A stretch of DNA of 64,000 nucleotides from Oscillospiraceae bacterium (GTDB lineage Bacteria; Bacillota; Clostridia; Oscillospirales; SIG627): positions 80,140 to 144,139 of the forward strand of contig SVRV01000002.1 in NCBI GenBank assembly GCA_015064635.1, written 5' to 3'. Both the position numbers and the translations under genes were made by a program. This document shows, one piece after another, positions 2,928 through 60,499 of the stretch. The notes under the pieces were generated by a model. That model saw nothing but the letters and a program-made list of their open reading frames with translations. It had not been told where the DNA came from and ran no database searches. Each line of letters starts with the position of its first letter. Within the stretch, counting starts at the first letter, position 1.

Positions 2928-3057
2928 TGTAACCTCCAAAAGTATCTTTTCTTAAATTATATCACAAGAAAAATATATTTTCAATAGATATTGTTTTTTT
3001 AAAATTTATGTAGTATAGTAATAATGTAAAATAACACATAACATAACGGAGATTACA

Positions 3058-9681: not shown

Positions 9682-10173
9682 CTAATTTTTAGCCGTTTCC
9701 TTAGCTTTTGCATCAGTTACTTCAAAATTAAAGGAAACATCGTTAGTGTAAGCACTAATATATCGTCCGGAAGCAACAAAGAAATTTCCGTTTATCATGT
9801 TACCTTCCTTGGTTGAACTTCCCTTTCCTTCTATTGTAAGGAAAATATCATATCGGTCGGGTATATATGTCTTTTTGATTTCGCCACTGTCAAGAGCGAT
9901 ATAGGTTTCGGCGGGTCTATAATTCTTGGCAGTAATTTTACCCAAAGCTGCATCGTCCTTTTGAGCGTAAACCACGTCATCTATCTGAATAATTGAAAAG
10001 GTATCTTTTTGAACGTTATTGATTCTTACTGTAAACTCTATGGTCTGGTTAGAGCGTGCACCGATAACGCTGTCCTTCAATCCGCTTCTGAAAACGATTG
10101 ACACAACCGCTATAATAATTACTAACAGTATCAAAAAATCTATGACGTTAAATTTAATCTTTTTATTTTTCAC
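9682..10173 (-). CDS. single-pass membrane protein, DUF4330-like
   Basis: N-terminus KFNVIDFLILLVIIIAVVSIVF followed by a beta-rich ectodomain. It is a paralogue of the next gene. The family assignment is from memory. Confidence 0.5.
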   Translation of the reverse strand: MKNKKIKFNVIDFLILLVIIIAVVSIVFRSGLKDSVIGARSNQTIEFTVRINNVQKDTFSIIQIDDVVYAQKDDAALGKITAKNYRPAETYIALDSGEIKKTYIPDRYDIFLTIEGKGSSTKEGNMINGNFFVASGRYISAYTNDVSFNFEVTDAKAKETAKN

Positions 10174-10717
10174 CGCTCTCTACCTCCTCATCAACTTCAT
10201 CAATCTGCAAACAAAATCCTTCTCCTACAAATTCGGGAACTCTAAAATACACCAAATGTCCTACACGTAATACAAAAGCATTTTTCTTATAGCCTTCGTC
10301 AGTTTTTTTGAGAGTATCTCTCACTCGTACCTTTACATTGTAATATTCATACTGAGGCTCAGCTTCAGCCGATAAATCGCTTTCTTCATCTGTCAAAACA
10401 GGATAATATTGAATAAACATTTCACCCGTGTTTGTATCCGTTGCAATATTGTATGCAGGTGAAACCACAATATCAACAACTTTTCCTATTTGCTGTTCTC
10501 TGACAGTTTCAACTACCGTATCACCGACTTTTATGTTGTCAACGTAATCACGGTGCACGGTTTTAAATTCTACGATATACTCTACTTCCACGTCTTGATT
10601 GGAAGCCACTAAATTACGTGCAGACATATAAAAGTAAAGTACTGCTCCAATTGCAACAACTGTCAATATAATAAAGACATCTATAATGTTAAACCTATAT
10701 TTTTTATTCTTGTTCAT
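10163..10717 (-). CDS. single-pass membrane protein, DUF4330-like (paralogue)
   Basis: N-terminus RFNIIDVFIILTVVAIGAVLYFY. Overlaps the downstream paralogue by 11 nt. Confidence 0.5.
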   Translation of the reverse strand: MNKNKKYRFNIIDVFIILTVVAIGAVLYFYMSARNLVASNQDVEVEYIVEFKTVHRDYVDNIKVGDTVVETVREQQIGKVVDIVVSPAYNIATDTNTGEMFIQYYPVLTDEESDLSAEAEPQYEYYNVKVRVRDTLKKTDEGYKKNAFVLRVGHLVYFRVPEFVGEGFCLQIDEVDEEVESGEK

Positions 10718-10729
10718 AAAGCTTACACC

Positions 10730-12634
10730 TCACATTATATTATTTTCAGGTATTTCATCGGATTTATATATATTTATTGCGGTAGATGCAATGCCTATCA
10801 TCATCCAGAAGAAAGCAAATACTCTGTAATTATACCAGACATAGTCTGTTAAACCTTGTACCAATATTGCTACAATTCCGCAAGTAACAGCACCTACCAA
10901 CAGCCTTGCATCCGAAAAGCTCGTTGACTTAATAAAGGTAAATGCTTTATTAACGAATAAAAACATCGTCAGCATAAACACAGCAAAACCGAGTATACCA
11001 AGCTCTATCATAATTTGCATATAAAGATTATGTGAATGGGGAGCAGTTTCTATTCCTGCCAAGGCATATTCGGAATATACAGCCTGATAAGCACCTGTTC
11101 CTATTCCGATTCCCGTAAGCGGAAAGTCCTTTATCATCCCAAGTGACGCCTCCCAAATATACACTCTGTACGAAGTAGAAGAATCTGTCATATTACCTAT
11201 ACTTGTAAATCGTGATACAATCGACTCCGGCAAAAAAGGAATCGCAAGAGGAAAAGCTAACATTCCCATAATATATGCACCCAGGGAATTCTTGTTAAGA
11301 ATTATGAAAAATATCAAAAGCGAAACAATACAACCAAGCCATGCACCTCGTGACCAAGTAAAAATCAAGGCCGCTACAGATGCAACAAGGGAAACCAGTG
11401 AAAGCGACTTGCCCGACATTTTCTTTGCAAGAAGCATAAACGTCAATGCAAGAGGAATCAGCATTATCAAATATTCACCAAAAACATTTGGATTTTCAAA
11501 AGTTGACACTACTCTTGTTTCAATGGCAGAAAACATATCTTCGTCAGTCCAAGTTGTATCAGGTGCTTCGAAAAAGTTCTGATAAATACCATAAAGAGAA
11601 CAAATTGTAAATGAAACAAGTGAAAAAGAAATCAGCTTTTTCAAGAGCTCTTTTGTCTTTATCAAATTAACTATCAAAAAATATGACAGCATAAAACAAA
11701 AGAACACACTCGCAGGAGGCAAACTTTCCGAAGGCGACACCGAAAAAAGACCGCCAAAAATCATGAGAATGGCAAAAGCCAAAACAAATAAATCAAGAAG
11801 CTCAAATCTTATTGATCTTTTTCCTCTTATGGCTTTAAAAAGAAATGCTATGAGCGTTAATATCAATTCGCCGCAAATGACCATAGTCGGTAAAAACGGC
11901 AAGGTTGCGATTGTAAGAATAACATTAAATTCGGGTTTGTTAAACGTGAGTGCAAGATAAACAAATCCAAATAAAGCGGCAACAAAAATAACGGGTGGGA
12001 TAAAAATAGCCAGCACACCAAGAAAAACTCCTATTAAAACAGGAAGTGCCGTTGTATCGCCCACAGCGGTACGCATTACGTCTTTGTTTTTATATCCGAT
12101 AAAACCTATAATTCTTTTAGATATTCCACTTGAAAGTAATGCTGTACAAAGCTGTTCTTTAGAGAGCAATAGCGGTATCGAAATCAATATGAACGCTATT
12201 CCCTGCCAAGGCAAATCAGAAATTGTGCTCAACTCGGCATTTTCCAAAAACGTCTTAATTAATTCTGTGCCGGTTGCAAAAAAGCCCAATATAAAAAGTA
12301 TTACGCCGTAAAACTTAAGCTTAGCCCCAAGCAAAAAATCAATAACTTTATTTATCAATCCGTAAAAGAAGCTATTTTCCACCCTTGATGAAATAGAATT
12401 CTTTAATCCAAGTACAGTTTTTGATCGAGGTTTAATTTTATTTACTGTTTCTCCCGCAAAACTGTCAGAATAGGAATCCGTCATATTATCGTACGAGGTA
12501 AACAGCTGAGCCAATCTGCTTGTTCTTATTTTAGAATAGAAGAAGTCTGAAATCTTGATTAAGACGTTGATAAAAAAACTCGATTCAAAGCTCTTATAGA
12601 TTTTTCCTTTTTTGCTGTTGCTCAAAAGATTCAC
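10730..12634 (-). CDS. polytopic membrane protein, O-antigen ligase/polymerase (Wzy_C)-like
   Basis: At least 10 predicted TM helices. The periplasmic-loop style segment WSRGAWLG...GIGTGAY...HSHNLYMQ is typical of the O-antigen ligase family. Confidence 0.6.
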   Translation of the reverse strand: MNLLSNSKKGKIYKSFESSFFINVLIKISDFFYSKIRTSRLAQLFTSYDNMTDSYSDSFAGETVNKIKPRSKTVLGLKNSISSRVENSFFYGLINKVIDFLLGAKLKFYGVILFILGFFATGTELIKTFLENAELSTISDLPWQGIAFILISIPLLLSKEQLCTALLSSGISKRIIGFIGYKNKDVMRTAVGDTTALPVLIGVFLGVLAIFIPPVIFVAALFGFVYLALTFNKPEFNVILTIATLPFLPTMVICGELILTLIAFLFKAIRGKRSIRFELLDLFVLAFAILMIFGGLFSVSPSESLPPASVFFCFMLSYFLIVNLIKTKELLKKLISFSLVSFTICSLYGIYQNFFEAPDTTWTDEDMFSAIETRVVSTFENPNVFGEYLIMLIPLALTFMLLAKKMSGKSLSLVSLVASVAALIFTWSRGAWLGCIVSLLIFFIILNKNSLGAYIMGMLAFPLAIPFLPESIVSRFTSIGNMTDSSTSYRVYIWEASLGMIKDFPLTGIGIGTGAYQAVYSEYALAGIETAPHSHNLYMQIMIELGILGFAVFMLTMFLFVNKAFTFIKSTSFSDARLLVGAVTCGIVAILVQGLTDYVWYNYRVFAFFWMMIGIASTAINIYKSDEIPENNIM

Positions 12635-22879: not shown

Positions 22880-24313
22880 CTATTTTTGTGATATCACATT
22901 ACCTTCCGCATCATATTCAGTAACGGAAACCAGCTTTTCGTTTGAATCGTACAGAGAAACGATCTGCTTCACTGTTTCCCCTTTATCGTTATAAATAAAT
23001 TCGTCAATCTCTTTTTCCAAAAGCTCGTCACCATTTCCGTACACTGAATATGTAACAAGCTCCACTTGCTTCTTGTCGTTATACTTGTAATCCACTTCCA
23101 TACAGTAAAGATGCATATTATCTTTATCATATACGTCCGTAACTCTCTTGGAAAGACTTCCGTAAGTGTTATATGTATACTCGGAATAATTGGAAGAGCT
23201 AAGCTCACCTGAAGCTGAATAATAGAAAAGCTCGGCTTTTACAGCTCTTTTTTCATTATCATACTCAGTTTTGTTAACGGATTTCGATTCAACCAATCCG
23301 TTTGAATAGTTCTCGGTTGTAGTAATTACTACGTCTCCTGACAGCTCTGTCGAAACGTTTTTTTGTACGGTTCCGTCTTCGTTTCTGAATTCTTCAGACC
23401 TTTTAATCTGATTGCCATTTTTGTCATAAGAATAAACAATAACCTTAGTTGTTATGGGATTGCCGTCCTTATCGGGAGAAAGGTATAAAATTTCATCAAT
23501 GTTACCGTTATCTCCGTAGTAAATTTCATACTCCTCTTTATATACCATTCCGTCATATGTATTCTCGATAAAAGCATCAATACATCTATTGGTATCATCA
23601 TATGTCCATCGGGTTTGGCTGACTGCACCTTCTGCTTCCTGAACGGAGTAAGACGGATAACCGTACTCATTTAAATACAAGGTCACTCCCGGCATTTCAT
23701 TTGAATCTGTACCAACAATCTGAATATACACTTCACTGCCAGAATAAGTAAAAGTCATTTCACCAAATTCATCATAAAAAAAGCTTACAGGAATCCCCTT
23801 TTCATTGTACTTATTTATGTTAACCGTTTTTCCGTCCTGATAAAACTTTTCTTCGGACACAATACCGTTATCAAAATAAGAAAGCTCTGCTGTTATGTGC
23901 ATTGAAGTATCGTCGCAAAGCGCTCCGATTGCTCTACCGTTCTCATCTGTAAGAGTTACGTCAAATTCATTTCCAAAATAGCTAAAAGAAGTCAAATTGC
24001 CATTTTCGTCATAATTGTATCTTGAAATGTGATTATCATCATTAGAGAAAGGAGCAGTGAGTGTTATAGGGTCAAGTGTAACTACCTCTGTTATTCTGCC
24101 CGTATCATCCTGCTTTACACGTGCAATTCCGTTAAGGTCATACACAAAAATATATTCAGGATCAACAACTGTTACCTTGTTGGGTACAACAGGTGTCTCG
24201 TTCGGTTGTGAAGAAGGCTTATCCGTGCTTTCTGAAGTACAAGATAGCATCAAAAAGCAAAGTAAAACTGCCATTGAGAAAAATATAAGCGTTTTAATTT
24301 TTTTGAAATTCAT
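22880..24313 (-). CDS. lipoprotein with degenerate YD-like repeats
   Basis: Signal peptide plus lipobox (LLCFLMLSC|TSES). Repeated Y-[DN]-x-x-G-N/E motifs: YDENGNLTSF, YNEKGIPVSF, YDKNGNQIKR, YNDKGETVKQ, YDAEGNVISQ. Confidence 0.6.
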   Translation of the reverse strand: MNFKKIKTLIFFSMAVLLCFLMLSCTSESTDKPSSQPNETPVVPNKVTVVDPEYIFVYDLNGIARVKQDDTGRITEVVTLDPITLTAPFSNDDNHISRYNYDENGNLTSFSYFGNEFDVTLTDENGRAIGALCDDTSMHITAELSYFDNGIVSEEKFYQDGKTVNINKYNEKGIPVSFFYDEFGEMTFTYSGSEVYIQIVGTDSNEMPGVTLYLNEYGYPSYSVQEAEGAVSQTRWTYDDTNRCIDAFIENTYDGMVYKEEYEIYYGDNGNIDEILYLSPDKDGNPITTKVIVYSYDKNGNQIKRSEEFRNEDGTVQKNVSTELSGDVVITTTENYSNGLVESKSVNKTEYDNEKRAVKAELFYYSASGELSSSNYSEYTYNTYGSLSKRVTDVYDKDNMHLYCMEVDYKYNDKKQVELVTYSVYGNGDELLEKEIDEFIYNDKGETVKQIVSLYDSNEKLVSVTEYDAEGNVISQK

Positions 24314-24421: not shown

Positions 24422-24838
24422 TTATTCTGCTTTTCCTTCGCAGTAAATGCAACGGTAAACCTTCTTCTCTCGGTCAGTGAGCTTAAACACATTGTCAAGC
24501 TCTTGTTCCGTTGCAGTAATGCACCTTGGATTCTTGCAGGTTATAATATTTACAAGCTTTTCGGGAAGACCTATTTTCTTCTTCTCAACCAAAATACAGT
24601 CCTTTATTATATCAACAGTGACACCGGAATCAACATATCCAAGAATATCCATATTGATATCAATATCACAGTCAATCTTGATAATGTCCTTCTTCCCCAT
24701 CTTGGAGCTTTGAACATTCCTTACAAGAGCAACCGAACAATCAAGTCGGTCGAGTTTCAGAAGCTGATAAATCTTCATACCGTTACCGGCTTTTATATGG
24801 TCAATAACTATTCCGTTTTTTATAGAGTCGATATTCAT
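24422..24838 (-). CDS. pyrI: aspartate carbamoyltransferase regulatory subunit
   Basis: Zn domain CKNPRC...YRCIYC. Directly follows pyrB. Confidence 0.85.
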   Translation of the reverse strand: MNIDSIKNGIVIDHIKAGNGMKIYQLLKLDRLDCSVALVRNVQSSKMGKKDIIKIDCDIDINMDILGYVDSGVTVDIIKDCILVEKKKIGLPEKLVNIITCKNPRCITATEQELDNVFKLTDREKKVYRCIYCEGKAE

Positions 24839-25752
24839 TATATTTCCTCCAGCAACATCAAAATTAAAGCCATTCTCATATACTTGCCGTAAAGAGCTTG
24901 TTTAAAATAACAAGCCCTGCTGTCATTGTCAACCGCTACGCTGATTTCATTAACTCTGGGTAACGGATGCATAATGCAAAGGTCATGCTTTGCATTGACA
25001 AGCTTGTCGGGAGTAAGAATGTAGCTGTCCTTGAGACGGAGATAATCGTCCTCGTTAAAGAAACGCTCACGTTGAACTCTTGTCATATAAAGAATATCAA
25101 GCTCTGGAAGAACAGCTTCAAGGTCTGTTGTCTCAACAAAGCCAAGACCGTTCTTTTCTATAACGTCTTTTTTTACATACCCTGGTATTTTCAATTCTTC
25201 GGGAGAAATCAGTACAAATTTAATATTGGTATATCTCGAAAGAGCATTAATTAAAGAGTGTACCGTCCTGCCAAACTTCAAGTCACCGCAAAGTCCCACT
25301 GTAAGATTATCAAAACGGCCTTTTTCACGCTTTATTGTTAAAAGGTCTGCCAGAGTCTGTGTGGGATGATTGTGACCGCCGTCACCTGCATTTATAACGG
25401 GAATCGTTGCGTTCATAGAAGCAACGAGAGGCGCTCCTTCCTTGGGATGGCGCATAGCCATAATATCTGCGTAGCAGGATATCATTTTAGCTGTGTCCGC
25501 CACACTTTCTCCCTTTTTGGCTGAACTTGAGCCTGCATCAGCCATAGAAAGCACGTTACCTCCAAGCTCGTACATGGCAGCCTCAAAGCTGAGTCTTGTT
25601 CTTGTTGAAGGCTCAAAGAACAAAGTTGCAAGCTTCTTTCCGTGACACTTCTCGGAATACTTCTTGGGATTTTCTATAATGTCATTTGCAACAGAAATAA
25701 GCTTGTCTATATCCTCAACCGAAAGGTCAAAAATATCTATTACGCTTTTCAT
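24838..25752 (-). CDS. pyrB: aspartate carbamoyltransferase catalytic subunit
   Basis: [20 protein letters not shown] and HPLPR motifs. Confidence 0.95.
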
Positions 25753-26387
25753 TATTTCGCACCGATCCAGCTTTCATCGGACGGATTATTTCTGAATGCA
25801 ATAAGACGCTTAATATCTTCGGGCTTGATATAGCCTTCCTCTGCTGCTACTTCAGCAATTGTATCAAAGTTTGTAAGGCTGATATTCTTAACATTCGCTT
25901 CTGCAAGTCTGTCAAGTCCCTTCTTCATTCCGTAGGTGAAGATAGACACGATACCAAGCACGTTAGCACCTGCTTCACGAAGAACATTTACAACTTCGAT
26001 AACGCTTCCTCCGGTAGAAATAAGGTCCTCAACAACTACTACCTTCTGTCCCTTTTCAAGCTTACCTTCTATCTGATTCTGTCTGCCATGGTCCTTTGCG
26101 CCGCTGCGAACATAACCCATGGGCATGTCAAGAATATGAGCAGTAATAGCTGCGTGAGCAATACCTGCTGTTGAAGTACCCATCAGCACTTCTGCATCGG
26201 GATAATTCTCCTTTATAAGCTTTGCAAGACCGTTCTCTACATCAAGACGCACCTCGGGTGCAGTAAGTGTCAAACGGTTGTCGCAATATACAGGGCTCTT
26301 GATACCGCTTGCCCATGTAAAGGGCTCTTCGGGGCGGAAGAATACCGCCTTAATTTTAAGTAAATCTTTTGCTATAAGCTTTTCCAT
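25752..26387 (-). CDS. pyrE: orotate phosphoribosyltransferase
   Basis: PRPP loop [13 protein letters not shown]. Confidence 0.9.
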
Positions 26388-26399
26388 ATCAATTCTCCT

Positions 26400-27098
26400 T
26401 TAATCTACAAATTCATTTACACAACGCTTGTATGCGGCTACGGGATCATCCGCTGCCGTAATAGGTCTGCCAACAACTATGTAATCGGAGCCGATTCTTT
26501 TTGCCTCTGCAGGAGTCATAACTCTTACCTGGTCGCCCTTGTCTCCGTCTGCAAATCTTACACCGGGAGTAACTGTTACAAAGTCTTTTCCGCATCTGTC
26601 ATGAACACGCTCTGCTTCAAGAGGTGAGCATACAACACCGTCAAGACCTGCTACTTTTGCATTGTGTGCATAGTGCATTACGGTGTTTTCCATAGTTTCG
26701 TTGATAAGAAGGTCATTCTTAAGACGCTCTTCACTTGTGGAAGTAAGCTGTGTAACAGCGATAAGTATGGGGCGTGTGCCGTCGGGTCTTGTAAGACCTT
26801 CAATAGCTGCCTCCATCATGGCAATAGTACCTGATGCGTGTAAATTAGTCATATCAACATCAAGTCTTGACAATACAGCCATAGATTTTTTTACTGTGTT
26901 AGGGATATCATGAAGCTTCAAATCAAGGAATATCTTGTGGCCTCTGGCTTTGATATCTCTGACGATTTGCGGTCCTTCCGCATAAAAAAGTTCCATTCCA
27001 ATCTTTACAAAAGGCTTTACATCAGTGAACTTATCAAGAAAAGACATTACTTCATCTTTCCCCGAAAAATCACATGCAATAATAACATCGCGTCCCAT
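26400..27098 (-). CDS. pyrF: orotidine 5'-phosphate decarboxylase
   Basis: DLKLHDIPNTV signature. Confidence 0.9.
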   Translation of the reverse strand: MGRDVIIACDFSGKDEVMSFLDKFTDVKPFVKIGMELFYAEGPQIVRDIKARGHKIFLDLKLHDIPNTVKKSMAVLSRLDVDMTNLHASGTIAMMEAAIEGLTRPDGTRPILIAVTQLTSTSEERLKNDLLINETMENTVMHYAHNAKVAGLDGVVCSPLEAERVHDRCGKDFVTVTPGVRFADGDKGDQVRVMTPAEAKRIGSDYIVVGRPITAADDPVAAYKRCVNEFVD

Positions 27099-28009
27099 TA
27101 GTGTGCTCCTCCTATTATATCCTTTAAGTCATTTATTCTGTATTTTTCCATAACAGCAGGTAATGAATCTATTATGTTTTTGCAAGCAAAAGGCTCGATA
27201 AGATTTGCGGCACCTACTTCAACAGCAGTTGCTCCTGCAAGCATCATTTCAATAACATCCTCTGCACTTGAAATTCCGCCCATACCGATAATTGGTATTT
27301 TAACAGCTTCATACACCTGGTAAACCATTCTGAGAGCAACGGGCTTTATAGCACTGCCCGAAAAACCGCCCATTTTATTTGCTATTATCGGCTTTTTGGT
27401 TTTTAAATCAATTCTCATACCCAAAAGTGTATTGATAAGGCTGATTCCATCCGCATCGTTTTCCTCACACGCCTTGGCAATCGAAACAATATCTGTAACA
27501 TTGGGCGAAAGCTTTATAAATACAGGCTTGGTTGTAACCGCCTTTACGGCACGTGTTACCTCACCTGCCGCTTCCGGTGAAGTACCGAAGCTCATTCCGC
27601 CGCCGTGAACATTGGGACAGCTAATATTTACTTCAAACCAACCTATCTGCTCTTCTTTATCAAGTTTTGCGCAGGTTTCGGAATATTCTTCAACGGAAAA
27701 TCCGCTGACATTTGCCATTACAGGCTTTGAAAAACATTTTTTAAGTTTGGGAAGCTCTTCGGAAATTACAGCATCAACTCCCGGATTCTGAAGTCCAACT
27801 GCATTTATCATACCTGCTTCACATTCTGCAATTCTTGGAGTCGGATTTCCAAAGCGTGCTTCTCTTGTTGTACCCTTAAAAGAAAATGTTCCAAGACAAT
27901 TTATGTCGTAGAGTTCTGCGAACTCATAGCCGAATCCGAAAGTTCCGCTGGCAGGGATAATAGGGTTATCAAGAGTTATGCCACAAAGTTCAACCTTTGT
28001 ATTTACCAT
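27098..28009 (-). CDS. pyrD: dihydroorotate dehydrogenase 1B, catalytic subunit
   Basis: NISCPNV active-site Cys, and a GGISSAEDV FMN-binding end. Confidence 0.9.
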   Translation of the reverse strand: MVNTKVELCGITLDNPIIPASGTFGFGYEFAELYDINCLGTFSFKGTTREARFGNPTPRIAECEAGMINAVGLQNPGVDAVISEELPKLKKCFSKPVMANVSGFSVEEYSETCAKLDKEEQIGWFEVNISCPNVHGGGMSFGTSPEAAGEVTRAVKAVTTKPVFIKLSPNVTDIVSIAKACEENDADGISLINTLLGMRIDLKTKKPIIANKMGGFSGSAIKPVALRMVYQVYEAVKIPIIGMGGISSAEDVIEMMLAGATAVEVGAANLIEPFACKNIIDSLPAVMEKYRINDLKDIIGGAH

Positions 28010-28734
28010 ATTATCTCCTCCCTTTCAAGCACCGGTCCGTCCTTACATATACGTTTATTGCCGTATTTTGTTTTACAAGAGCATCCCATGCAAGCACCGA
28101 ATCCGCATCCCATACGCTCCTCAAAGCTGTACTGTCCGCTTGTATTTACTATTTTCTCCACTGCACGGAACATAACTTCCGGACCGCAGGTGAAAAAGTA
28201 ATCATAATTTACTTCGCCCATAGCATCGGTAACAAAGCCTTTGATTCCAAAGCTTCCGTCGGCTGTTGTAACATACACCTTAGCACCGAGTGCTTCAAAT
28301 TCATCCTTGTAAAAAACGTCATCGGCAGAATTAAAGCCAAGAATCACGCTTACATTTTTACCGTCGCAAATCAAATCCTTGCAAAGACGGTATAAAGGAG
28401 GAACACCTACACCACCGCCTATAAGCAAAGGTGTGTTTCCGCTTTTTGAAATATTATAACCGTTACCAAGTCCCACAAGCACATCAAGCTTGTCCCCTGC
28501 TTTCATTTCGGACATCTGTTCTGTGCCTCCGCCGACAACCTTGTATATAAGTGTTATGCTGTTACTGTCATAATCGCAAATAGAAATGGGACGTCTCAAA
28601 AACTTTCCTTCAAGTTTTATATTAACAAACTGCCCGGGTGCGGTAATGGCGGAGGTGTCTCCGCCAATTATCATTTTATAAATATCTCTTGCTATTTTGT
28701 CATTTGACAAAATTGTATATATTCCCTGTGTCAC
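28003..28734 (-). CDS. pyrK: dihydroorotate dehydrogenase electron-transfer subunit
   Basis: FAD/NAD fold plus the C-terminal 2Fe-2S motif CGFGACMGCSC...C. Confidence 0.9.
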   Translation of the reverse strand: MTQGIYTILSNDKIARDIYKMIIGGDTSAITAPGQFVNIKLEGKFLRRPISICDYDSNSITLIYKVVGGGTEQMSEMKAGDKLDVLVGLGNGYNISKSGNTPLLIGGGVGVPPLYRLCKDLICDGKNVSVILGFNSADDVFYKDEFEALGAKVYVTTADGSFGIKGFVTDAMGEVNYDYFFTCGPEVMFRAVEKIVNTSGQYSFEERMGCGFGACMGCSCKTKYGNKRICKDGPVLEREEIIW

Positions 28735-28751
28735 TATTTTGTAACCTCACT

Positions 28752-31700
28752 TCAAGAATTTATGGTTGAAATACCAAGAGTCGTCTCCTCAAGTACGTCA
28801 AGCAAAACCTTTACTGTGTCAAGTGCTGTGAAAATTGTAACGTTATTCTGTACGGCACACTGTCTTATCTGGTGACCGTCTGACATGCTTCCCGTATTGA
28901 TATCACGGGTATTTATAACATAATTTACATATCCCTGTCTTATAGAGTTCAAGATATCCTCGGCACCGTCGCTTATTTTCTGTCTTACTCTTGTTCTGAT
29001 ACCGTGCTCCTTAAGGAACTTTGCTGTACCTTCGGTTGCTTCGATATTGAATCCAAGGTTGTAGAATCTTCTTATGAGCTCAAGTGCCTCTTCCTTGTCT
29101 CTGTCTGCAATTGTTGCAAATACGGTACCATAGTTTACAACGTTCATTCCGCTCGCCTGAAGAGCCTTGTAAAGCGCTCTGTTGAGCTTGTTGTCATATC
29201 CGATAGCTTCACCAGTCGATTTCATTTCAGGTGAAAGATATGCATCAAGTCCGCTGAGCTTCGAGAATGAGAATGCAGGAGCCTTTACATACCAACGTTC
29301 CTTTTCCTTGGGATAAATCTCGGTGATTCCCTGCTCTTTAAGTGTCTTACCGAGAATTACTAAAGTACCGATATCAGCAAGGCTGTAGCCTGTTGACTTT
29401 GAAAGGAACGGTACAGTTCTGGATGAACGGGGATTTACCTCTATGATATAAACATCATCGTGCTCATCTACAATAAACTGAATGTTGAAGAGTCCTACAA
29501 TGCCTATGCCGAGACCGAGCTTCTTGGTGTATTCAAGAATGGTTTCCTTAACCTTATCACTCAAGGTGAAGGATGGATAAACACTGATTGAGTCACCGGA
29601 GTGAATACCGGTTCTTTCTACCAGCTCCATTATACCGGGAACAAATACGTCTGTTCCGTCACAAACAGCATCTACTTCGACTTCCTTACCCTGAATATAC
29701 TTATCAACAAGTACAGGCTTGTCTTCATCAACCTCAACGGCTGTCTTAAGATAGTGTCTGAGCATATCCTCGTTTGATACTATCTGCATTGCACGACCGC
29801 CGAGAACGAATGAGGGTCTAACAAGAACGGGATAACCTATCTCACCTGCTACCTTAACACCATCTTCAATGTTTGTAACGGCGGCACCTCTGGGCTGAGG
29901 AATATTAAGTGACTGGAGTACCTTTTCGAATGCATCTCTGTTTTCTGCCTTTTCGATAGCATCGCAATCAGTACCGATAATCTTAACACCACGTTTTGTA
30001 AGAGGCTCTGCAAGATTTATGGCAGTCTGACCGCCGAGAGAAGCAATAACTCCAATTGGGTTTTCAAGCTCAATTATATTCATTACGTCCTCTGTGCAAA
30101 GAGGCTCAAAATACAATTTGTCTGAAGTTGTATAATCTGTTGAAACTGTTTCGGGATTGTTATTAATTATTATAGCTTCAAATCCCGAGCGCTTTATTGT
30201 TGTAACCGCATGAACTGTTGAATAGTCAAACTCAACACCCTGACCGATACGGATGGGACCTGAACCAAGTACTATAACCTTCTTCTTATCAGAAACAATA
30301 GACTCATTCTCTTCTTCGTAGGTTGAATAGAAATAAGGAATATAGCCTTCAAATTCCGAAGCACAGGTGTCAATCATCTTATACACAGGGAACATCTTTG
30401 CATCTTTTCTCATGTTCCATACGTATATTTCATCAACGCCCCAAAGCTTTGAAATAAAGTTATCGGAGAATCCCATTCTCTTTGCCTGATAAAGAACATC
30501 CATGTCAAACTTTGCATTCTTTACAACTGTTTCCATATCAACAATGTTCTTTAATTTTTCAAGGAACAGCATTTCTATCTTAGTAGCATCACAAATGAGA
30601 CCAAGGTCAACACCGTTTCTTATGAGTTGAGCAATAGCAAAGTAACGATCGTCTGTCGCATCCTTTACATAAGCTAACATTTCATCGTTTGTATATGAAT
30701 CGAATTTTTTCATATAAAAATGCGAAACGCCGATTTCAATAGAACGAACAGCCTTCAGTAAGCTTTCCTCTATTGTTCTTCCGATGCTCATTACCTCACC
30801 GGTAGCCTTCATTTGTGTGGAAAGCTTATTGTTTGCATCGGTAAATTTATCAAACGGGAAACGGGGCATCTTTGTTATTACATAGTCAAGAGTGGGCTCA
30901 TATGCAGCGGGAGTATTTGCAATCTTAATTTCGTCAAGTGTCATTCCGACAGCAATTTTAGCGGTTACTCTTGCTATGGGATATCCGCTTGCTTTTGAAG
31001 CAAGAGCAGAAGATCTGGAAACTCTGGGGTTTACCTCAATGAGGTAGTATTCCATTGAATGGGGGTCGAGTGCGAACTGAACGTTACAACCGCCTTCAAT
31101 CTTAAGCTCTCTGATAATTTTAAGCGCACTGTTACGAAGCATTGCGCATTCCTGACTGGTGAGTGTCTGTGTAGGACAAACAACCACGGAGTCGCCTGTA
31201 TGAACACCAACGGGGTCAACGTTTTCCATGTTACAAATAGCAATAGCGGTGTTATTTGCGTCACGCATAACCTCGTATTCAATTTCCTTGTATCCCTTAA
31301 TGCTCTTTTCAACCAAAACCTGATGAACAGGAGAAAGTTTAAGAGCATTTTTAAGAATATCCGCACACTCTTCGGGATCGTCCGCAAATCCGCCTCCCGT
31401 ACCGCCAAGAGTAAAAGCAGGGCGAAGAACAACGGGATATCCTATCTTCTCTGCAACACGCAATCCGTCTTCTATTGTATTAACAGTATCAGAAGGAAGA
31501 ACAGGCTCGCCAAGCTTTTCACAAAACTCTTTAAACAGCTCTCTGTCCTCGGCTGTTTCGATACTTTCAACTCTTGTACCTAAAAGCTCAACCTGACACT
31601 CCTTAAGAATGCCTTTTCTGTGAAGCTGTGTTGCAAGATTAAGACCTGTCTGACCACCGATACCGGGTATAATTGCGTCAGGACGCTCGTATCTGAGTAT

Positions 31701-31928
31701 TTTGGCAACATACTCAAGAGTAAGAGGCTCCATGTAAATTTTATCTGCAATTGTTGTGTCTGTCATGATGGTAGCAGGATTGGAGTTACAAAGAACAACT
31801 TCATATCCCTCTTCCTTGAGAGCAAGACAAGCCTGTGTGCCTGCATAGTCAAATTCTGCTGCCTGACCTATAACGATAGGTCCCGAACCAATAACCAATA
31901 TCTTCTTTATATCACTTCTCTTAGGCAT
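28752..31928 (-). CDS. carB: carbamoyl-phosphate synthase large subunit
   Basis: 1058 aa. Two ATP-grasp halves with duplicated GSGP(I)xIGQ...EFDY motifs, and an MGS-like C-terminus. Confidence 0.95.
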
Positions 31929-33015
31929 TGTCTTTTTCCTCCTTCATGCTATTTAAGAACTGACAGAACAAGCATTCGCTGTCAAGAGAGCTCAAAGCGC
32001 TTTCTGTCTGATACTGGATAGCGAATACCTTGTCCTCTGTACATCTCATTCCTTCTACCGTTAAATCTATTATGTTTAGCTGAACAATTTCAAGCTTAGT
32101 AGACTTTAAACTGTCTGCATCTACAACATATCCATGATTCTGCGAGGTTACCTCAACGATTCCGTTAAGCAGATTCTTCACGGGGTGATTCACACCTCTG
32201 TGTCCGAATTTAAGTTTAGAAATCTTTCCTCCGTAAGAAAGTGCAATTACTTCATGACCAAGTCCTGAGCCAAAGATAGGACACTTGCCTTTAAGGGCGT
32301 TTACAAGCTCTACAAGACACGGAGTATCCTCGGGTGCCCCCGGTCCGTCGGTAATAAACACACCGTCGGGTTTCATAGCAAGTATATCCTCTGCCGTTGT
32401 ATCATAAGGCACGACCGCAACATTACAGCCGTAAGAATTCAATATATCTATCACGTTGTCTTCAAGGCCGCAATCAACCACAACAATGTTGTATTTAGCA
32501 TTGTGAGTTCTTGAATACCATTTTCTCTTACAGCTAACCTTTGAAACAGCATCGGTGGGAATATCTGTATTCTTTATAATTTCCAATGCCTTTTCTGTAG
32601 GTGTATCAATCGAAGTAATCAAAACCTTACAGCATCCGTTGTCACGAATTGTTCTTGTAAGCTTTCTTGTATCAAGACCGTAAATTCCGGGAATGTGATT
32701 TTCCTCCATTACCTCTGAAAGTGTCTTAACGTATCTGAAATTTGAAGGGAGGTCATTATATTCTCTTACAATAAGTCCGCCGATGGTGGGAGTTTTTGTT
32801 TCTCCGTCATCTGAAACACCGCAAGTTCCTATAATCGGATATGTCATTACGACCATTTGATACATGTAAGTAGGGTCGGAAACTATCTCCTGATATCCCA
32901 CCATTGATGTATTAAAAACTATTTCGCAAACTCTGTCGCAATCGTCACCAAAACCGTAGCCTGCGTACTCACTTCCGTCCTCAAGGACTATTTTCCTGTT
33001 CATTTTTCCTGCCAT
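31921..33015 (-). CDS. carA: carbamoyl-phosphate synthase small subunit with a degenerate glutaminase triad
   Basis: CarA N-domain and class I GATase fold ([11 protein letters not shown] and SQNHGYVVD are conserved). The nucleophile elbow reads FGSGLGHE where the canonical sequence is FGICLGHQ. The HPE motif reads QTE (FAIQYQTES). Confidence 0.85.
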
Positions 33016-34262
33016 ACTATTTTACCTCCATACATTGTAAGAACACATTTTCCATTAACTTTTACACCTTCAAATGGTGTGCACTTTCCTTTGGAAAGAA
33101 ATTCTTTTGAATCTATATTATACTCTTCGTCAAGGTCAAACACTGTCAAATCAGCTCTGTCACCGATTTCCAGTCCGCCTTTGATTCCGAATCGTCGTTT
33201 GGGGTTTACAGCCATCAGCTGTACAAGCTTTTCAAGAGAAATAAAACCGCTCTTTACAAGATTTGTATAAAGAATCGGAAATGCGGTTTCAAGTCCTACT
33301 ATTCCCATAAGGCTCTTTTCGAGGCCTCTTGATTTCTCTTCTTCCGAATGAGGTGCGTGGTCGGTCGCAATCATATCTATCGTACCGTCTGCAATTCCTT
33401 CAAGCAAAGCCAGTCTATCTTCTTCAGACCTGAGCGGAGGATTCATTTTATATCTGGCATCCTCTTTTAAATCCTTGTCTGAAAGTACAAGATAATGCGG
33501 TCCTGTCTCGCAGGTTATGTTTACTCCCTGCTTTTTTGCCTCACGTATCAGTGAAACGCTTTCCTTGGTCGATATGTGACAAACATGGTAGGAAACCCCG
33601 GTTTCTTTTATAAGTTCAATATCCCGCTTTATCGGTCCCCATTCGCTCTCGGAGCATATTCCTCGGTGATTATGCTGCTTTGCATACTCTCCGTCGTGTA
33701 TATATCCCGAATTCAAAAGTGAATTGTCTTCACAGTGAGCCGAAATAATCTTATTGAGTGCTTTTGCCCTCTTCATAGCCTCCAGCATAAGAGCTTTGTT
33801 TTGAACTCCCCTGCCGTCATCGGAAAATCCGCAGACATCTCCTGCCATCCCCTCAAGATCGGCAAGAGTCTCACCTTTTTCACCGACAGTAATCGTTCCG
33901 AATGGCAAAACTTCAATAAGTGCATCCCGCTCAATTGCATCAAGCTGAATCTTTAAATTTTCTACCGAATCGGGTGTAGGTGAAAGGTTAGGCATCGAGC
34001 AGACCGTTGTATATCCACCGTGGGCGGCCGCGGAAGTGCCCGAGGCTATCGTCTCTTTATAAATAAATCCCGGTTCTCGCAAATGTACGTGTACATCGGC
34101 AAAACCGGGAAAAACAAATTTATCGGACAAGTCAAGAATCTGTACATCGGCGCCAGAAAGAGATGAAGACACACTTGAAATCAGACCGTCAACAATAGCA
34201 ATATCACGGCTAACAAAGCCGTTGCCGTCAAACACCATACCGCTTTTCAAAATGTAAGTCAT
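33000..34262 (-). CDS. pyrC: dihydroorotase
   Basis: DVHVHLREPG metal motif, plus a DHAPH segment. Confidence 0.9.
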   Translation of the reverse strand: MTYILKSGMVFDGNGFVSRDIAIVDGLISSVSSSLSGADVQILDLSDKFVFPGFADVHVHLREPGFIYKETIASGTSAAAHGGYTTVCSMPNLSPTPDSVENLKIQLDAIERDALIEVLPFGTITVGEKGETLADLEGMAGDVCGFSDDGRGVQNKALMLEAMKRAKALNKIISAHCEDNSLLNSGYIHDGEYAKQHNHRGICSESEWGPIKRDIELIKETGVSYHVCHISTKESVSLIREAKKQGVNITCETGPHYLVLSDKDLKEDARYKMNPPLRSEEDRLALLEGIADGTIDMIATDHAPHSEEEKSRGLEKSLMGIVGLETAFPILYTNLVKSGFISLEKLVQLMAVNPKRRFGIKGGLEIGDRADLTVFDLDEEYNIDSKEFLSKGKCTPFEGVKVNGKCVLTMYGGKIVWQEK

Positions 34263-34319
34263 ACCGTCTCTCCTTTTGACACAAAAAAAGAATCTAATAA
34301 ACAGATTCAGTAGAAATGC

Positions 34320-34372
34320 AAAAAGCGGAACCGGGCGTGAAACCTTATGCGGAAGCCGTCCGCCGTTCGCCT
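34320..34372 (-). promoter_or_regulatory. possible leader hairpin / attenuator of the pyr operon
   Basis: Leader RNA: ...GGCGGACGGCUUCCGCAUAAGGUUUCACGCCCGGUUCCGCUUUUUGC. GCGGA can pair either locally (GCGGA cggcu UCCGC) or with the distal UCCGC just before the U-run. The stems are short and bulged. Confidence 0.3.
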
Positions 34373-34388
34373 TTCTCTTATTCGAGTT

Positions 34389-34417
34389 ATTTTATCACAA
34401 ATCAGCAAGTATGTCAA
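34389..34417 (-). promoter_or_regulatory. sigma-A type promoter of the pyr operon
   Basis: Minus strand: TTGACA, 17 nt, TAAAAT. Confidence 0.6.
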
Positions 34418-34550
34418 GAGAAAAGTCGAAACAAAATTGCATATATAGTATCATTTGTCAATTTTCTTTAAATATGACGGAACATATATTGATTTTTTCC
34501 GTCATATGTATTAAAATACATATGTATAAAGTACTATTCAGAGGTATTCG

Positions 34551-40312: not shown

Positions 40313-42808
40313 TCACTCGTTAGAGCCCCATTCAATAGGAGGAGTTTCATTTCCAACTGCAACGATGAACTTACATGTTGCTGTGAACTCTCCGTCCTCA
40401 GATGTTACTGTAACTGTAGCAACACCGCCGCCTACTGCTGTAACTACACCATTATCAACAGTAACAATTTCTTCGTTTGAAGATTCCCATGTTACGTTCT
40501 TGTTAGTAGCATTAGCAGGAGTAAATGTAACTTCAAGGTTTACAATGTCGCCAAGGTAAACATTAGCACTGGTCTTGTTAAGAGCGATACCCTCAACAGC
40601 GAAACCGGATGTTACTTCAACGTAGCACTCTGCGTAGAGATCTTCGTTGTCTTCAGAGATTACTGTAACGATTGTAATACCGGGCTCAATTGCTGTAAGA
40701 AGTCCGTTTTCATCAATTGTAGCAACGTCTTCATTTGTTGATTCCCAGAAAAGGTTCTTCTGAGTTGTGTTATCAGGTGTGAAGATAACTTCGAACTGAT
40801 ATGTTTCGCCAAATACGATCTGGAGTTCTTCAACGTCAAGAGCAATTTCTTCAACGGGAACATCATCGGGTATAGGCTCATTAACTGTGATAGCACACTT
40901 AGCTGTCTTTTCACCGTCAACTGTTGTAACTACGATGTTTGTCTGACCTGCACCAACTGCTGTTACGAGACCGTCAACAACTGTTGCTACAGTGTCATCT
41001 TCTGTTGACCAAACAACATCCTTATTATCAGCATCTGCAGGTTCAACTGTTGCATTAAGCTGAAGAGTTTCATTGATCTCAAGAACTGCACCTGTTACAT
41101 CAAGAACTACGCCTGTAACATTGATAACAGGGAAAACAGCAGTTACTTCGCATGTTGCTTCGAAGTCACCATCTTCAGTTGTAGCTGTGATTGTAACGGT
41201 ACCGTTGGAAACAGGTGTTACAACACCATCAACAACCTTTGCAATTTCGTCATTGCTTGAAGTCCAGATAACATTCTTGTTAGTAGCATTTGCGGGAGTA
41301 ATAGTCGCAACAAGCTTGAGTGTATGACCAGCCTCAACTGTAGCTGTAGCCTGATCAAGCTCAATACCCTCTACTGCAACACCGGGAACTGTGATAACAC
41401 ATGTATCGGTGTAAGCACCATTTGAGGTAGATGCTGTGATTGTAGTTGTACCGCCTGCAATAGCTGTAACCTTGCCGTTAACTACATATGCAACATCAGG
41501 ATCAGATGAATTCCAAAGAACCTGATTGAAAGTAGCATCCGCAGGAGCTACAGTAGCAGTAAGAGTAGTTGAACTACCGATAGCAACTTCTTCTGTTTCC
41601 TTATCAAGCTCAATACCTTCTACTTCAACAGGAGTGATAGCATTAAAGCGATATCCGTTATTCTCAGCAAATGTCTGAGCATATGAACCTTCTTCACCGT
41701 AAACGTGAAGGAGGTTTGCAAGATAGAATGCACCCTGGTTTCTTGCGCCTGCTGTATCACCATTGATAGATGTTACAGACGAAGGAATGTAAATGCTTCT
41801 GAGGTTCTTACGTCTAAAGAATGTGTTAGCTGCAATTGTAGTAACATTCTCGGGTACTACAAGGGTGTATTCAGTTTCCAAGCCAAGATTTTCAATAGCA
41901 TCGGTGTTAGCAAGACGAACATCACCAATAGTAAGAGTAAAACGATTAGCTCTACCGGTGGAAGTTCTAAGGGGATTTCCGCCTGCAGCAAATGTACTTC
42001 CGGCCCAAGCAGCAAAATTCGGCACATTTATTGTCTGGAATCTGTTCATTTCCGAAACAGACTTTGTGCCAAACGATACAGGCTTATCACCCATGGTGAG
42101 TGTAGTAAGATAGTTGTTAAAGTTGAAAGCACAAGTACCGATAGACTTTACATTAGGACCAAGAGTTACTGACTTAAGAGCACTCTTGTAGAAAGCATAT
42201 GAACCTATGTCCTCTACCTCTTCAGGAACAACAAGGTCAGTAAGCTTTTCGCCGTTTACATAAAAATTCCATGCAGATGAAGGCATCATCGCAGAGGGGT
42301 TAGAAGCTTTTTCTCCGAAAGTACACTGACACCAATTAGTAAGGTCTGTTATGTAAACATTTTCAATGCTACATCCCATGAATGCATAATAATAAACTTG
42401 ATTAATGTTCTTTCCGAAATACACGTTCTTAACGCTTGATCTCATGAAAGCGTACTGATAAATTTCTTTCAAGGAATCGGGGAAAACAATGTCTGTTATC
42501 TTAGAAAAGTTTCTGAATGCGTTCTTACCAATAGAAACGACACCCTCTTCGATAACAATGTTTTCTACTTCGTCACAATACTTATTCCACGGAACGTAAA
42601 TTGGCGCTCCGTATGTTGCCATTCTACCGGTACCGCTGATAACCAATGTCTTGGTATCCTGGTAATATGACCATGTGAGGTTGGCATTATTACCACTACA
42701 GTCACCAGAAGCAGTAGGCTGTGCTTCGGCAGATGCAATGATTGCAATAGCAAAGAGCATCACAAAAGCCAAAACAAGAGTGAGTGAAAGCTTCAATGTT
42801 TTTTTCAT
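40313..42808 (-). CDS. secreted surface protein: BspA-type leucine-rich repeats plus ~6 Big_2 (Ig-like) domains
   Basis: Signal peptide. The N-terminal half carries LRR_5-style units (IGxxAFxxCxxLxxV). The C-terminal half has repeated ~80-aa units (VEGIELD...L.ATV.PA.ATNK.V.W.SS...VA.V...G.VTAV..G...ITA). I saw no LPXTG motif. Confidence 0.8.
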   Translation of the reverse strand: MKKTLKLSLTLVLAFVMLFAIAIIASAEAQPTASGDCSGNNANLTWSYYQDTKTLVISGTGRMATYGAPIYVPWNKYCDEVENIVIEEGVVSIGKNAFRNFSKITDIVFPDSLKEIYQYAFMRSSVKNVYFGKNINQVYYYAFMGCSIENVYITDLTNWCQCTFGEKASNPSAMMPSSAWNFYVNGEKLTDLVVPEEVEDIGSYAFYKSALKSVTLGPNVKSIGTCAFNFNNYLTTLTMGDKPVSFGTKSVSEMNRFQTINVPNFAAWAGSTFAAGGNPLRTSTGRANRFTLTIGDVRLANTDAIENLGLETEYTLVVPENVTTIAANTFFRRKNLRSIYIPSSVTSINGDTAGARNQGAFYLANLLHVYGEEGSYAQTFAENNGYRFNAITPVEVEGIELDKETEEVAIGSSTTLTATVAPADATFNQVLWNSSDPDVAYVVNGKVTAIAGGTTTITASTSNGAYTDTCVITVPGVAVEGIELDQATATVEAGHTLKLVATITPANATNKNVIWTSSNDEIAKVVDGVVTPVSNGTVTITATTEDGDFEATCEVTAVFPVINVTGVVLDVTGAVLEINETLQLNATVEPADADNKDVVWSTEDDTVATVVDGLVTAVGAGQTNIVVTTVDGEKTAKCAITVNEPIPDDVPVEEIALDVEELQIVFGETYQFEVIFTPDNTTQKNLFWESTNEDVATIDENGLLTAIEPGITIVTVISEDNEDLYAECYVEVTSGFAVEGIALNKTSANVYLGDIVNLEVTFTPANATNKNVTWESSNEEIVTVDNGVVTAVGGGVATVTVTSEDGEFTATCKFIVAVGNETPPIEWGSNE

Positions 42809-55905: not shown

Positions 55906-55988
55906 TGGTGCGAGAGACGGGACTTGAACCCGTACGGATAACCACACGCCCCTCAAACGTGCGCGTCTGCCAATTTCGCCACTCTCGC
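55906..55988 (-). tRNA. tRNA-Leu (anticodon GAG), CCA encoded
   Basis: Manual cloverleaf. Acceptor GCGAGAG/CUCUCGC. D-arm GCG-AAAUUGGCAGA-CGC. Anticodon arm CACGU-UUGAGGG-GCGUG. Long variable arm. T-arm ACGGG-UUCAAGU-CCCGU. Ends ACCA. Confidence 0.9.
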
Positions 55989-56332: not shown

Positions 56333-56419
56333 TGGTGCGGATAGCAGGACTTGAACCTGTACCGAATCACTCCGACTAGAACCTGAATCTAGCGCGTCTG
56401 CCAATTCCGCCATATCCGC
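56333..56419 (-). tRNA. tRNA-Leu (anticodon CAG), CCA encoded
   Basis: Manual cloverleaf. Acceptor GCGGAUA/UAUCCGC. D-arm GCG-GAAUUGGCAGA-CGC. Anticodon arm CUAGA-UUCAGGU-UCUAG. Long variable arm. T-loop UUCAAGU. Confidence 0.9.
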
Positions 56420-58273: not shown

Positions 58274-58291
58274 TTTCAGCGTACTCCTTTC

Positions 58292-60082: not shown

Positions 60083-60100
60083 ATTACTTTTTTCCTCCGT

Positions 60101-60469
60101 TTACTTTGTAGCGGCTCCGATTGTATACTCTGTTACAACCTTGCCATTCTTAATATGGTCTTCAATTACCTTTGCAACCTTTTCGGTAGTCATATTTACA
60201 TATGTTACCTTTTCTTCTCCGCTAAATACTTCAACTACAGGCTCGTACTGGCAGATGCCGATACAGCCGGTCTGTGAAACAGACACTTTCCCTGTAAGTC
60301 CTGCATTTGCAACACCCTCAACGAAAGCATTGAGAACAGGTCTTGCTCCTGCTGAAATTCCGCAAGTAGCCATGCCTACAACTACTTTCATTGTAGCGCC
60401 ATTCTCACGGATGTTAACTTTGCTCTGCATCTTTTCTCTGATTGCAGCAAGTTCAGCTAATGATTTCAT
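60101..60469 (-). CDS. thioredoxin-like [2Fe-2S] ferredoxin (HydD-like, 122 aa)
   Basis: VVVGMATCGISAG...QTGCIGICQYEP Cys pattern. Confidence 0.75.
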   Translation of the reverse strand: MKSLAELAAIREKMQSKVNIRENGATMKVVVGMATCGISAGARPVLNAFVEGVANAGLTGKVSVSQTGCIGICQYEPVVEVFSGEEKVTYVNMTTEKVAKVIEDHIKNGKVVTEYTIGAATK

Positions 60470-60499
60470 AACTTTTTCCCTTCTTATATTTTTATTTTT

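Follow-up and report, generated by a model that had tools for sequence, protein, structure and literature searches.

How does a bacterium supply nitrogen to its pyrimidines if the carbamoyl phosphate synthase (CPS) encoded in its pyrimidine operon no longer has the residues that hydrolyse glutamine? This question is raised by carA, the gene for the small subunit of CPS, in a 64,000-nucleotide stretch of the genome of an Oscillospiraceae bacterium (contig SVRV01000002.1, positions 80,140–144,139; that is, the window, whose own numbering is used below). To our knowledge, textbooks and the recent literature hold bacterial CPS to be glutamine-dependent; the pairing of ammonia dependence with a dead glutaminase domain counts as an innovation of the vertebrate urea cycle. 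In the window, the catalytic array of the glutaminase is lost, the new state is conserved throughout a lineage and the gene has stayed under purifying selection. We suggest, with a probability of roughly 0.7, that this CarA is a pseudo-glutaminase whose remaining role is to support the large subunit, CarB, either structurally or by activating it, and that the holoenzyme uses free NH3 to make carbamoyl phosphate.

Loss of the catalytic array from a full-length CarA

By sequence and fold, the window protein belongs to the CarA family over its full length. It matches the TIGR01368 model well above its cutoff (375.4 bits versus 307.35; model positions 2–360 of 361), carries both expected Pfam domains (PF00988, CPSase_sm_chain, E-value 2e-43; PF00117, the glutamine amidotransferase (GATase) domain, 1e-34), is 34–36% identical to Escherichia coli CarA and is encoded beside an overlapping carB. 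Its AlphaFold2 model (mean predicted local distance difference test score 85.9, predicted template modelling (TM) score 0.86) finds E. coli CarA (1A9X_B, TM 0.85) and the N-terminal moiety of human CPS1 (TM 0.82) as top Foldseek matches. These analyses agree with the first-pass annotation, made from the DNA alone, which had described a full-length subunit with its fold motifs in place.

Residue columns were set by phmmer against Protein Data Bank (PDB) sequences, which laid CarA 173–359 over E. coli CarA 190–376 with a single one-residue gap, well upstream of both catalytic motifs; around the nucleophile elbow the local alignment is ungapped, between the invariant P-x-F-G and L-G-H. Conservation was surveyed in 24 protein clusters of close relatives (hereafter the clade) against 94 canonical relatives. 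The gene and its altered positions are as follows.

31921–33015, minus strand: carA, the 364-amino-acid (aa) CPS small subunit, in which an N-terminal CarB-binding domain precedes a class I GATase-fold domain; open reading frame (ORF) intact, glutaminase catalytic array gone
32869–32871, minus strand: Thr49 for Ser47 (glutamine/thioester contact), fixed in the clade
32461–32463, minus strand: Glu185 for Lys202, a charge reversal in the former active site, fixed in the clade
32347–32349, minus strand: Asp223 for Asn240 of the N-G-P-G oxyanion-hole motif, fixed in the clade
32251–32274, minus strand: former nucleophile elbow F-G-S-G-L-G-H-E (TTT GGC TCA GGA CTT GGT CAT GAA), aligned with FGICLGHQ
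32263–32265 (GGA), minus strand: Gly251 for E. coli Cys269, invariant in 24/24 clade clusters
32251–32253, minus strand: Glu255 for E. coli Gln273, Glu in most clade members
32191–32193, minus strand: Val275 at the E. coli Gly293 position (G293V in 92% of the clade)
32002–32016, minus strand: Q-Y-Q-T-E (CAG TAT CAG ACA GAA), with FAIQYQTES over FSFQGHPEA
32008–32010, minus strand: Gln336 for His353 (phmmer alignment)
32005–32007, minus strand: Thr337 for Pro354 (phmmer alignment)
32002–32004, minus strand: Glu338, the retained E. coli Glu355 (phmmer alignment)
31984–31995, minus strand: remodelled tunnel-wall loop L-S-S-L for E. coli Pro358-Gly359-Pro360-His361; P-G-P-Q in canonical relatives

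Glu338 is thus all that remains of the Cys269-His353-Glu355 triad, and where a class I triad amidotransferase has G-x-C-x-G and His-x-Glu, the window protein has G-S-G-L-G and Q-T-E. Ser47, Lys202 and Gln273 are reportedly part of the catalytic array, and Pro358–His361 are said to line the tunnel; the three array positions, together with Asn240, are likewise replaced here. In E. coli, Cys-269 and His-353 are essential to glutamine hydrolysis (PMC6245113). Variation among the new residues is uneven: QYQTES shows no variation across the 24 clade clusters, and in the tunnel loop P358L and P360S are fixed and H361L reaches 92%, with position 359 free to vary, as is the Ile268 position; elbow position 250 of the window numbering is Ser, Thr or Ala. 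The first-pass annotation had reported the loss of Cys and His with codons and coordinates that prove exact at both motifs, and its column assignments are confirmed by the alignment to E. coli CarA structures; the loss goes further than it had proposed, in that Ser47, Lys202, Asn240, Gln273 (in most members), Gly293 and the 358–361 loop are changed too.

Conservation, selection and repeated loss

The substituted state is lineage-wide and selected. When the best 120 database matches are split by identity, all 24 protein clusters at 79–100% carry the elbow Gly and Q-T-E, and 94 of the 96 matches at ≤68% carry G-I-C-L-G-H-Q and H-P-E; in P0106 and P0108, which make up the remainder, Cys is exchanged for Gly and H-P-E is retained. 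A back-translated QYQTES pattern identifies the motif in eight GTDB species representatives, and the order pyrC-carA-carB is held wherever the fetched clade loci reached neighbouring genes; a further locus search with peptides common to canonical relatives returned sister-group loci and no new clade members among the matches listed. The identical CarA protein sequence is present in one ENA and one JGI metagenome assembly, and the nearest named genome is an uncultured Oscillospiraceae metagenome-assembled genome (MAG; CarA 91% and CarB 96% identical). Sequencing error, a worry raised at first pass along with a proposal to survey relatives, is ruled out by that survey, given that identical substitutions recur across independent assemblies in 24/24 clusters and eight GTDB species.

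Selection was gauged for each of the two CarA domains. Synonymous divergence (dS) is saturated between clade species, and the ratio of nonsynonymous to synonymous divergence (dN/dS) of carA is ~0.02–0.07 for the whole gene, at most ~0.04 for the N-domain and 0.03–0.09 for the GATase domain. Measured against CarB, divergence of the GATase domain is 3.3–4.1-fold in the clade versus a median of 1.5-fold in canonical relatives, and that of the N-domain has a median of 0.73-fold versus 1.2-fold, the clade values coming from six non-independent pairs drawn from four genomes and the canonical medians from 130 pairs of similar CarB divergence. Relative to CarB, the GATase domain evolves ~2.4-fold faster than in canonical relatives; it is under relaxed yet still purifying constraint. 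The N-domain, which contacts CarB, is strongly conserved. CarB itself is 92.5–96% identical across clade species, compared with only 67–78% for PyrC, which indicates that the synthetase is functional.

The gene is part of a minus-strand operon that is complete for de novo pyrimidine synthesis (pyrC-carA-carB-pyrK-pyrD-pyrF-pyrE-pyrB), in which the overlaps of carA with both neighbours indicate co-translation. The other seven genes are given here.

33000–34262, minus strand: pyrC (dihydroorotase), the first gene of the operon; 16-nt overlap with the carA start
28752–31928, minus strand: carB, the 1058-aa CPS large subunit (synthetase), canonical; its ATG overlaps the carA stop by 8 nt
28003–28734, minus strand: pyrK
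27098–28009, minus strand: pyrD
26400–27098, minus strand: pyrF
25752–26387, minus strand: pyrE
24838–25752, minus strand: pyrB

This eight-gene order is identical in the clade, in three canonical relatives (loci L082, L086 and L090) and in a separately degenerate relative (L128), and two more canonical loci (L081 and L136) share it as far as it was detected; the window carA is the positional orthologue of the canonical pyr-operon carA. In a neighbour-joining tree of CarB, the clade forms one monophyletic group within the canonical lineages, with canonical L088 as its neighbour, and three other degenerate relatives (L128, L096 and L153) fall elsewhere, beside canonical L099 and L136. Each of the three shows its own lesion: Cys to Gly and His to Arg in L128 (JAZQEC01, 10001–11095); Cys kept, with His353 to Gln and G-H to G-M, in L096 (Congzhengia sp. 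JAZPYM01, 1416–2513); and the CPS I-like change of Cys to Ser beside an intact H-P-E in L153 (CAZTEA01, 3001–4098). A larger CarB tree of 231 loci contains 19 maximal all-dead groups with a Fitch minimum of 17 changes, a count that is approximate given the lack of bootstrap support and the uneven sampling of canonical lineages. One Cys-less locus that groups with the window clade (L244) has a different downstream signature, which suggests that Cys was lost first and that the rest of the site decayed later.

CarA proteins without the nucleophile extend far beyond this clade. An exhaustive HMMER search of 1.84 billion cluster representatives yielded 125 full-length proteins among its best 150, of which 78 have Cys269 and 47 lack it (42 of those having Gly). 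The remainder of the array follows: Ser47 is conserved in 77/78 Cys-bearing versus 14/47 Cys-less representatives, Lys202 in 77/78 versus 30/47, Gln273 in 76/78 versus 26/47 and His353 in 75/78 versus 7/47, a correlated decay of the kind predicted if the other positions are freed from selection once the nucleophile has gone. In GTDB species genomes, a DNA pattern for P-phi-F-G-phi-G-L-G-H-Q recovered at least 118 carA homologues among the 120 matches listed; almost all of these adjoin carB, many lie in pyr operons, and the His353 position holds D, E, H, Y, N, T, Q and others. Cys-less CarA occurs in more than 120 GTDB species and makes up roughly one third of the nearby 50%-identity cluster representatives.

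By their NCBI labels, and among the matches listed (loci L174–L293), the carriers include many gut and rumen Oscillospiraceae, Acutalibacteraceae, Congzhengia and Christensenellaceae MAGs, at least 13 Syntrophomonadaceae, Heliobacteriaceae, Limnochordia, Tissierella, and some Akkermansia and Opitutales MAGs (Verrucomicrobiota). Cultured aerobes are also represented, namely eight Sporosarcina species, one with a complete genome (ANT_H38, L239, CP173271 1552001–1560000), Siminovitchia fordii (L206, DSM 16014) and S. acidinfaciens, Lederbergia lenta (L227, NBRC 16444), L. galactosidilytica and L. panacisoli, Lentibacillus juripiscarius, and Allobacillus halotolerans (L252, CP117968) and A. salarius. 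Given this breadth, the ammonia-rich gut or rumen niche that the first-pass annotation had invoked is at best a partial explanation, as the same loss is found in aerobic cultured Bacillaceae; for the window lineage, the niche itself is suggested solely by the names of related bins. Glutamine amidotransfer in general has not been abandoned, as indicated by a 45%-identical Cys-less CarA (P0130) in the same operon type beside purF and purL with Pfam-detected GATase domains.

Two sets of loci stand somewhat apart. In most Sporosarcina (8 species), only Cys is replaced, and Ser47, Lys202, Asn240, Gln273, Gly293 and Glu355 are kept, as are Pro354 and P-G-P (L220, L225, L238, L239, L246, L250 and L270) and, wherever the position was read, His353 (except Tyr in L238); this pattern could reflect either glutamine binding without hydrolysis (that is, a sensor) or recent loss. 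Four bins labelled Alistipes, a genus of Bacteroidota (L189, L200, L219 and L285), have a Clostridia-like pyr operon with a Cys-less CarA, the same gene order, and CarB 72–80% identical to that of the window, which points to mis-binning, mislabelling or horizontal transfer.

Proposed ammonia use, its precedents and the alternatives

From these data we infer that glutaminase activity is absent, that free ammonia is used and that the role of CarA is structural. In the mechanism that we propose, CarA would fold correctly and bind CarB through its N-terminal domain, yet could no longer bind or hydrolyse glutamine; CarAB would make carbamoyl phosphate from bicarbonate, 2 ATP and free NH3; the NH3 would reach the carboxyphosphate site of CarB without passing the old glutaminase site; and CarA would have been retained since CarB needs a structural or activating partner rather than a nitrogen donor. 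In E. coli CarA, the substitutions C269S/G, H353N and G359F/Y reportedly abolish the use of glutamine and spare NH3-dependent synthesis, and E. coli mutants with a blocked tunnel reportedly use ammonia and not glutamine (Huang & Raushel 2000). Isolated E. coli CarB acts as an ammonium-dependent CPS (PMC8121099). The window CarA resembles its E. coli homologue in its two-domain fold, full-length match and CarB partnership; unlike the wild type, which has Cys269, His353, Ser47, Lys202, Gln273 and an open tunnel, it shares Glu355 only, and it naturally combines the kinds of change found in the laboratory mutants.

The N-terminal half of CarB aligns cleanly with E. coli CarB, and attention was confined to five pre-chosen tunnel and interface positions (232, 251, 261, 265 and 314). 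At the distal ammonia gate (PMC8674909), Cys232 and Ala314 are retained, with Cys taking the place of Ala251 as it does in 9/61 canonical sisters; these three positions stay conserved next to Cys-less CarA also. The difference lies at the two remaining positions, and at the first of them the window CarB departs from the norm:

31146–31148, minus strand: CarB Cys261 for the otherwise conserved Tyr261 (alignment)

Tyr261 is present in 147/151 CarB proteins beside canonical CarA versus 59/95 beside Cys-less CarA, and Arg265 in 151/151 versus 79/95; position 261 is Cys in the window clade and L128 and Asn in Sporosarcina. We take Tyr261 to lie near the tunnel and the subunit interface, and Arg265 to be the residue used in experiments to perforate the tunnel wall. 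The pattern suggests co-evolution of the subunit-interface part of the ammonia tunnel, and the stretch of channel that joins the two subunits appears to be no longer needed, whereas the synthetase still is. A scan of CarB 1–405 for residues that track canonical versus dead CarA was discarded, because its top matches were confounded by taxonomy and E. coli itself shows ‘dead-set’ residues.

Vertebrate CPS I, the analogy drawn at first pass, is an apt one. In human CPS1 (PDB 5DOT/5DOU), the CarA-homologous moiety has an inactive glutaminase site with Ser294 in place of Cys; the ancestral tunnel is closed by Gln318, the counterpart of E. coli Gly293, and ammonia from outside probably takes a different route in (PMC4655335). 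As both its Cys and its Gly293 position (Val275) are substituted, the window CarA parallels CPS I at two positions; CPS I takes external NH3, as the window enzyme is predicted to do. At the level of sequence, then, a dead glutaminase-like domain has been retained in both, whereas CPS I is a single fused polypeptide of ~1500 residues that requires N-acetylglutamate and serves the urea cycle, and the window enzyme has separate subunits (364 + 1058 aa) in a bacterial pyrimidine operon. The window CarA has lost His and Pro as well, whereas human CPS1 presumably keeps His-Pro-Glu. The loss in the window lineage is independent of, and convergent with, that in CPS I. Frog CPS I reportedly has Glu at the equivalent of Gln273, as does the window CarA. 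The frog enzyme (Rana catesbeiana) is ammonia-specific and its glutaminase-like domain is inactive through substitutions around the elbow, yet it keeps the Cys-His-Glu triad, and one point mutation restores glutaminase activity (PMC4655335); the window CarA, by contrast, is without the triad. Among gut bacteria, Bacteroides thetaiotaomicron CarB2 (BT3866) is likewise a CPS proposed to use free ammonium, on an indirect basis in both cases (PMC8121099). CarB2 differs from the window enzyme in lacking a small subunit and in occurring alongside a canonical CarAB; in the window lineage, a conserved carA directly precedes carB and is kept under purifying selection in the pyr operon.

Several points weigh against the reading of CarA as a retained pseudo-glutaminase in an ammonia-dependent CPS. 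The Michaelis constant (Km) of E. coli CPS for ammonia is high, and an efficient NH3-dependent enzyme would need adaptations. The new residues QYQTES, Glu185 and Asp223 are invariant, which suggests that the old pocket may have taken on a role instead of simply falling inactive. The organism may not depend on the use of ammonia by CarAB if a second carA, carAB or carbamate kinase exists. Finally, G293V, at first taken as proof of a blocked tunnel, was downgraded to a weaker sign, because some CarAs that do carry Cys269 also show Ala, Ser, Cys or Val there.

The alternative that survives best concerns the cell rather than the gene. The pyr-operon enzyme could be a high-ammonium isozyme, one of two CPS systems, with a canonical carA or carAB elsewhere in the genome (for example, linked to arginine synthesis); the overall supply of carbamoyl phosphate in the cell would then not depend on ammonia. 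We consider this a real though minority possibility. Separate CPSs for pyr and arg are the usual arrangement in Bacillaceae, several of which have a Cys-less CarA in the pyr operon. A division of this kind would mirror the one proposed for B. thetaiotaomicron, in which CarAB serves at low ammonium and the orphan CarB2 when ammonium is high (PMC8121099). In the group around the window clade, copy number and context vary, as indicated by loci in which carA-carB stands alone outside the pyr operon (L088, L096, L099 and L153), and in the related MAG CALXNI01 canonical carA occurs twice (L137 and L142), once at a contig end with carB alongside and once within pyrD-carA-carB-pyrB, which reflects either two CPS copies or a mixed bin. 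On the other side, a tblastn search with E. coli CarA finds a single carA in the 64-kb window, and the QYQTES motif scan, which is blind to canonical copies, gives one locus per clade MAG. That the whole-genome-shotgun (WGS) prefixes of canonical and dead loci do not overlap among the matches listed in collection-wide scans carries no information on this point. In any case, this alternative bears on physiology only and leaves the reading of carA as encoding a dead glutaminase unaffected.

A gained role for the old pocket, whether in ammonium capture or in ligand sensing, is possible but unsupported; room for it is left by the altered charge (Lys to Glu, Asn to Asp and Gln to Glu, beside the kept Glu355) and by the constancy of the new residues. 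In the first form, which we think unlikely, the pocket would have been rebuilt as an ammonium-capture site that feeds NH3 to CarB, and the Cys-less CarAs would mark a large, overlooked class of ammonia-dependent bacterial CPSs; the newly acidic positions Glu185, Asp223 and Glu255 would join Glu338, with the remodelled 358–361 loop, to recruit and deprotonate NH4+, and CPS would in this way gain a subunit devoted to harvesting ammonia. Were such a class to exist, the all-glutamine view of bacterial CPS would be overturned. In the second form, more doubtful still, the former glutamine pocket would be a ligand-sensing or allosteric site, where glutamine or some other metabolite is bound without hydrolysis and tunes CarB. 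This would fit residues that are invariant rather than drifting (QYQTES, Glu185, Asp223 and Thr49), and the Sporosarcina pattern, in which most species have replaced Cys alone, fits retained glutamine binding; E. coli C269 mutants are said to still bind glutamine and, in doing so, to stimulate the ATPase of the large subunit. In the window clade, however, the glutamine contacts themselves are replaced (Ser47, Lys202 and, in most members, Gln273) and the whole GATase domain evolves faster than in canonical relatives, so that a sensor role suits the Sporosarcina type better than the window clade.

It is very improbable that the glutaminase remains active through another nucleophile, be it Ser/Thr250, Thr49 or Cys245. 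A Ser or Thr does adjoin the elbow Gly in most clade members and Cys245 is present in 22/24 clusters, yet position 250 is Ala in 3/24, the general base His353 is gone, and Ser47, Lys202 and Gln273 decay together with Cys across lineages. Cys245, the Cys of KCPIFG that the first-pass annotation had named as the residue a proper alignment might bring to the elbow, lies off that column: its E. coli counterpart is Ile263, on the strand ahead of the elbow and six residues upstream, and the replacement of Cys245 by Tyr or Leu in 2/24 clusters shows that no nucleophile has been displaced to it. An artefact or a decaying pseudogene (that is, a sequencing or assembly error, or a gene being lost), for which the unusual residues are the sole argument, has a virtually nil probability and was rejected, given an intact, full-length ORF that is translationally coupled to pyrC and carB, substitutions conserved as described above, and a dN/dS of ≤0.09 with saturated dS.

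If CarA is indeed a pseudo-glutaminase that serves an ammonia-fed CarB, a bacterial lineage has altered its pyrimidine-feeding CPS as in CPS I and kept it under selection. Nitrogen entry to pyrimidine and arginine synthesis would then bypass glutamine in many gut, rumen, digester and soil Bacillota, which would matter for metabolic models and for growth at high or low ammonia, and the convergent losses would serve as a set of natural experiments on the roles that the small subunit has for CarB beyond producing ammonia. The automated annotation as glutamine-hydrolysing would also be wrong for a large set of proteins above the equivalog cutoff: a clade member (P0023) bears the NCBI name ‘glutamine-hydrolyzing carbamoyl-phosphate synthase small subunit’, public annotation gives its relatives this name too, and passing the TIGR01368 equivalog cutoff without catalytic residues has wrongly propagated this functional name. 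As Cys-less CarA occurs in cultured strains (Sporosarcina, Lederbergia lenta, Siminovitchia fordii and Allobacillus halotolerans), these ideas are testable. Our full-text literature searches found no description of a bacterial CarA without the catalytic Cys, and all bacterial CPSs known in 2021 were stated to be glutamine-dependent (PMC8121099), both in agreement with the impression at first pass that such an enzyme had not been described. Cys-less CarA represents a widespread and recurrent yet apparently undescribed state in bacteria.

The rest of the window

An Rfam scan of the 288 nt upstream of pyrC (34263–34550) returned no PyrR-type or other leader, no pyrR gene was seen in the pyr operon, and the 64-kb window holds no nitrogen-assimilation or arginine genes. 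Its remainder is an ordinary anaerobic Bacillota chromosome, with uvrABC, trmD, rimM, murJ, proBAC and an FeFe-hydrogenase cluster. Just downstream of pyrB lies a 477-aa ORF with a weak RHS-repeat match (22880–24313), and at 40313–42808 an 831-aa surface-type protein combines BspA-like leucine-rich repeats with five Big_2 domains. Two minus-strand tRNA genes (55909–55988 and 56336–56419) are the sole Rfam gathering-level matches in the window. They are followed by the FeFe-hydrogenase-type cluster (56537–63377), whose larger genes are these.

56537–58273: HydA-like large subunit
58292–60082: Nuo51/HydB-like flavoprotein
62094–63377: second Fe-hydrogenase-domain protein, with a putative Fe-S cluster domain

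With small histidine-kinase-like ATPase, PHP and DRTGG proteins encoded between the hydrogenase genes, the cluster looks like an electron-bifurcating hydrogenase with a sensory module.

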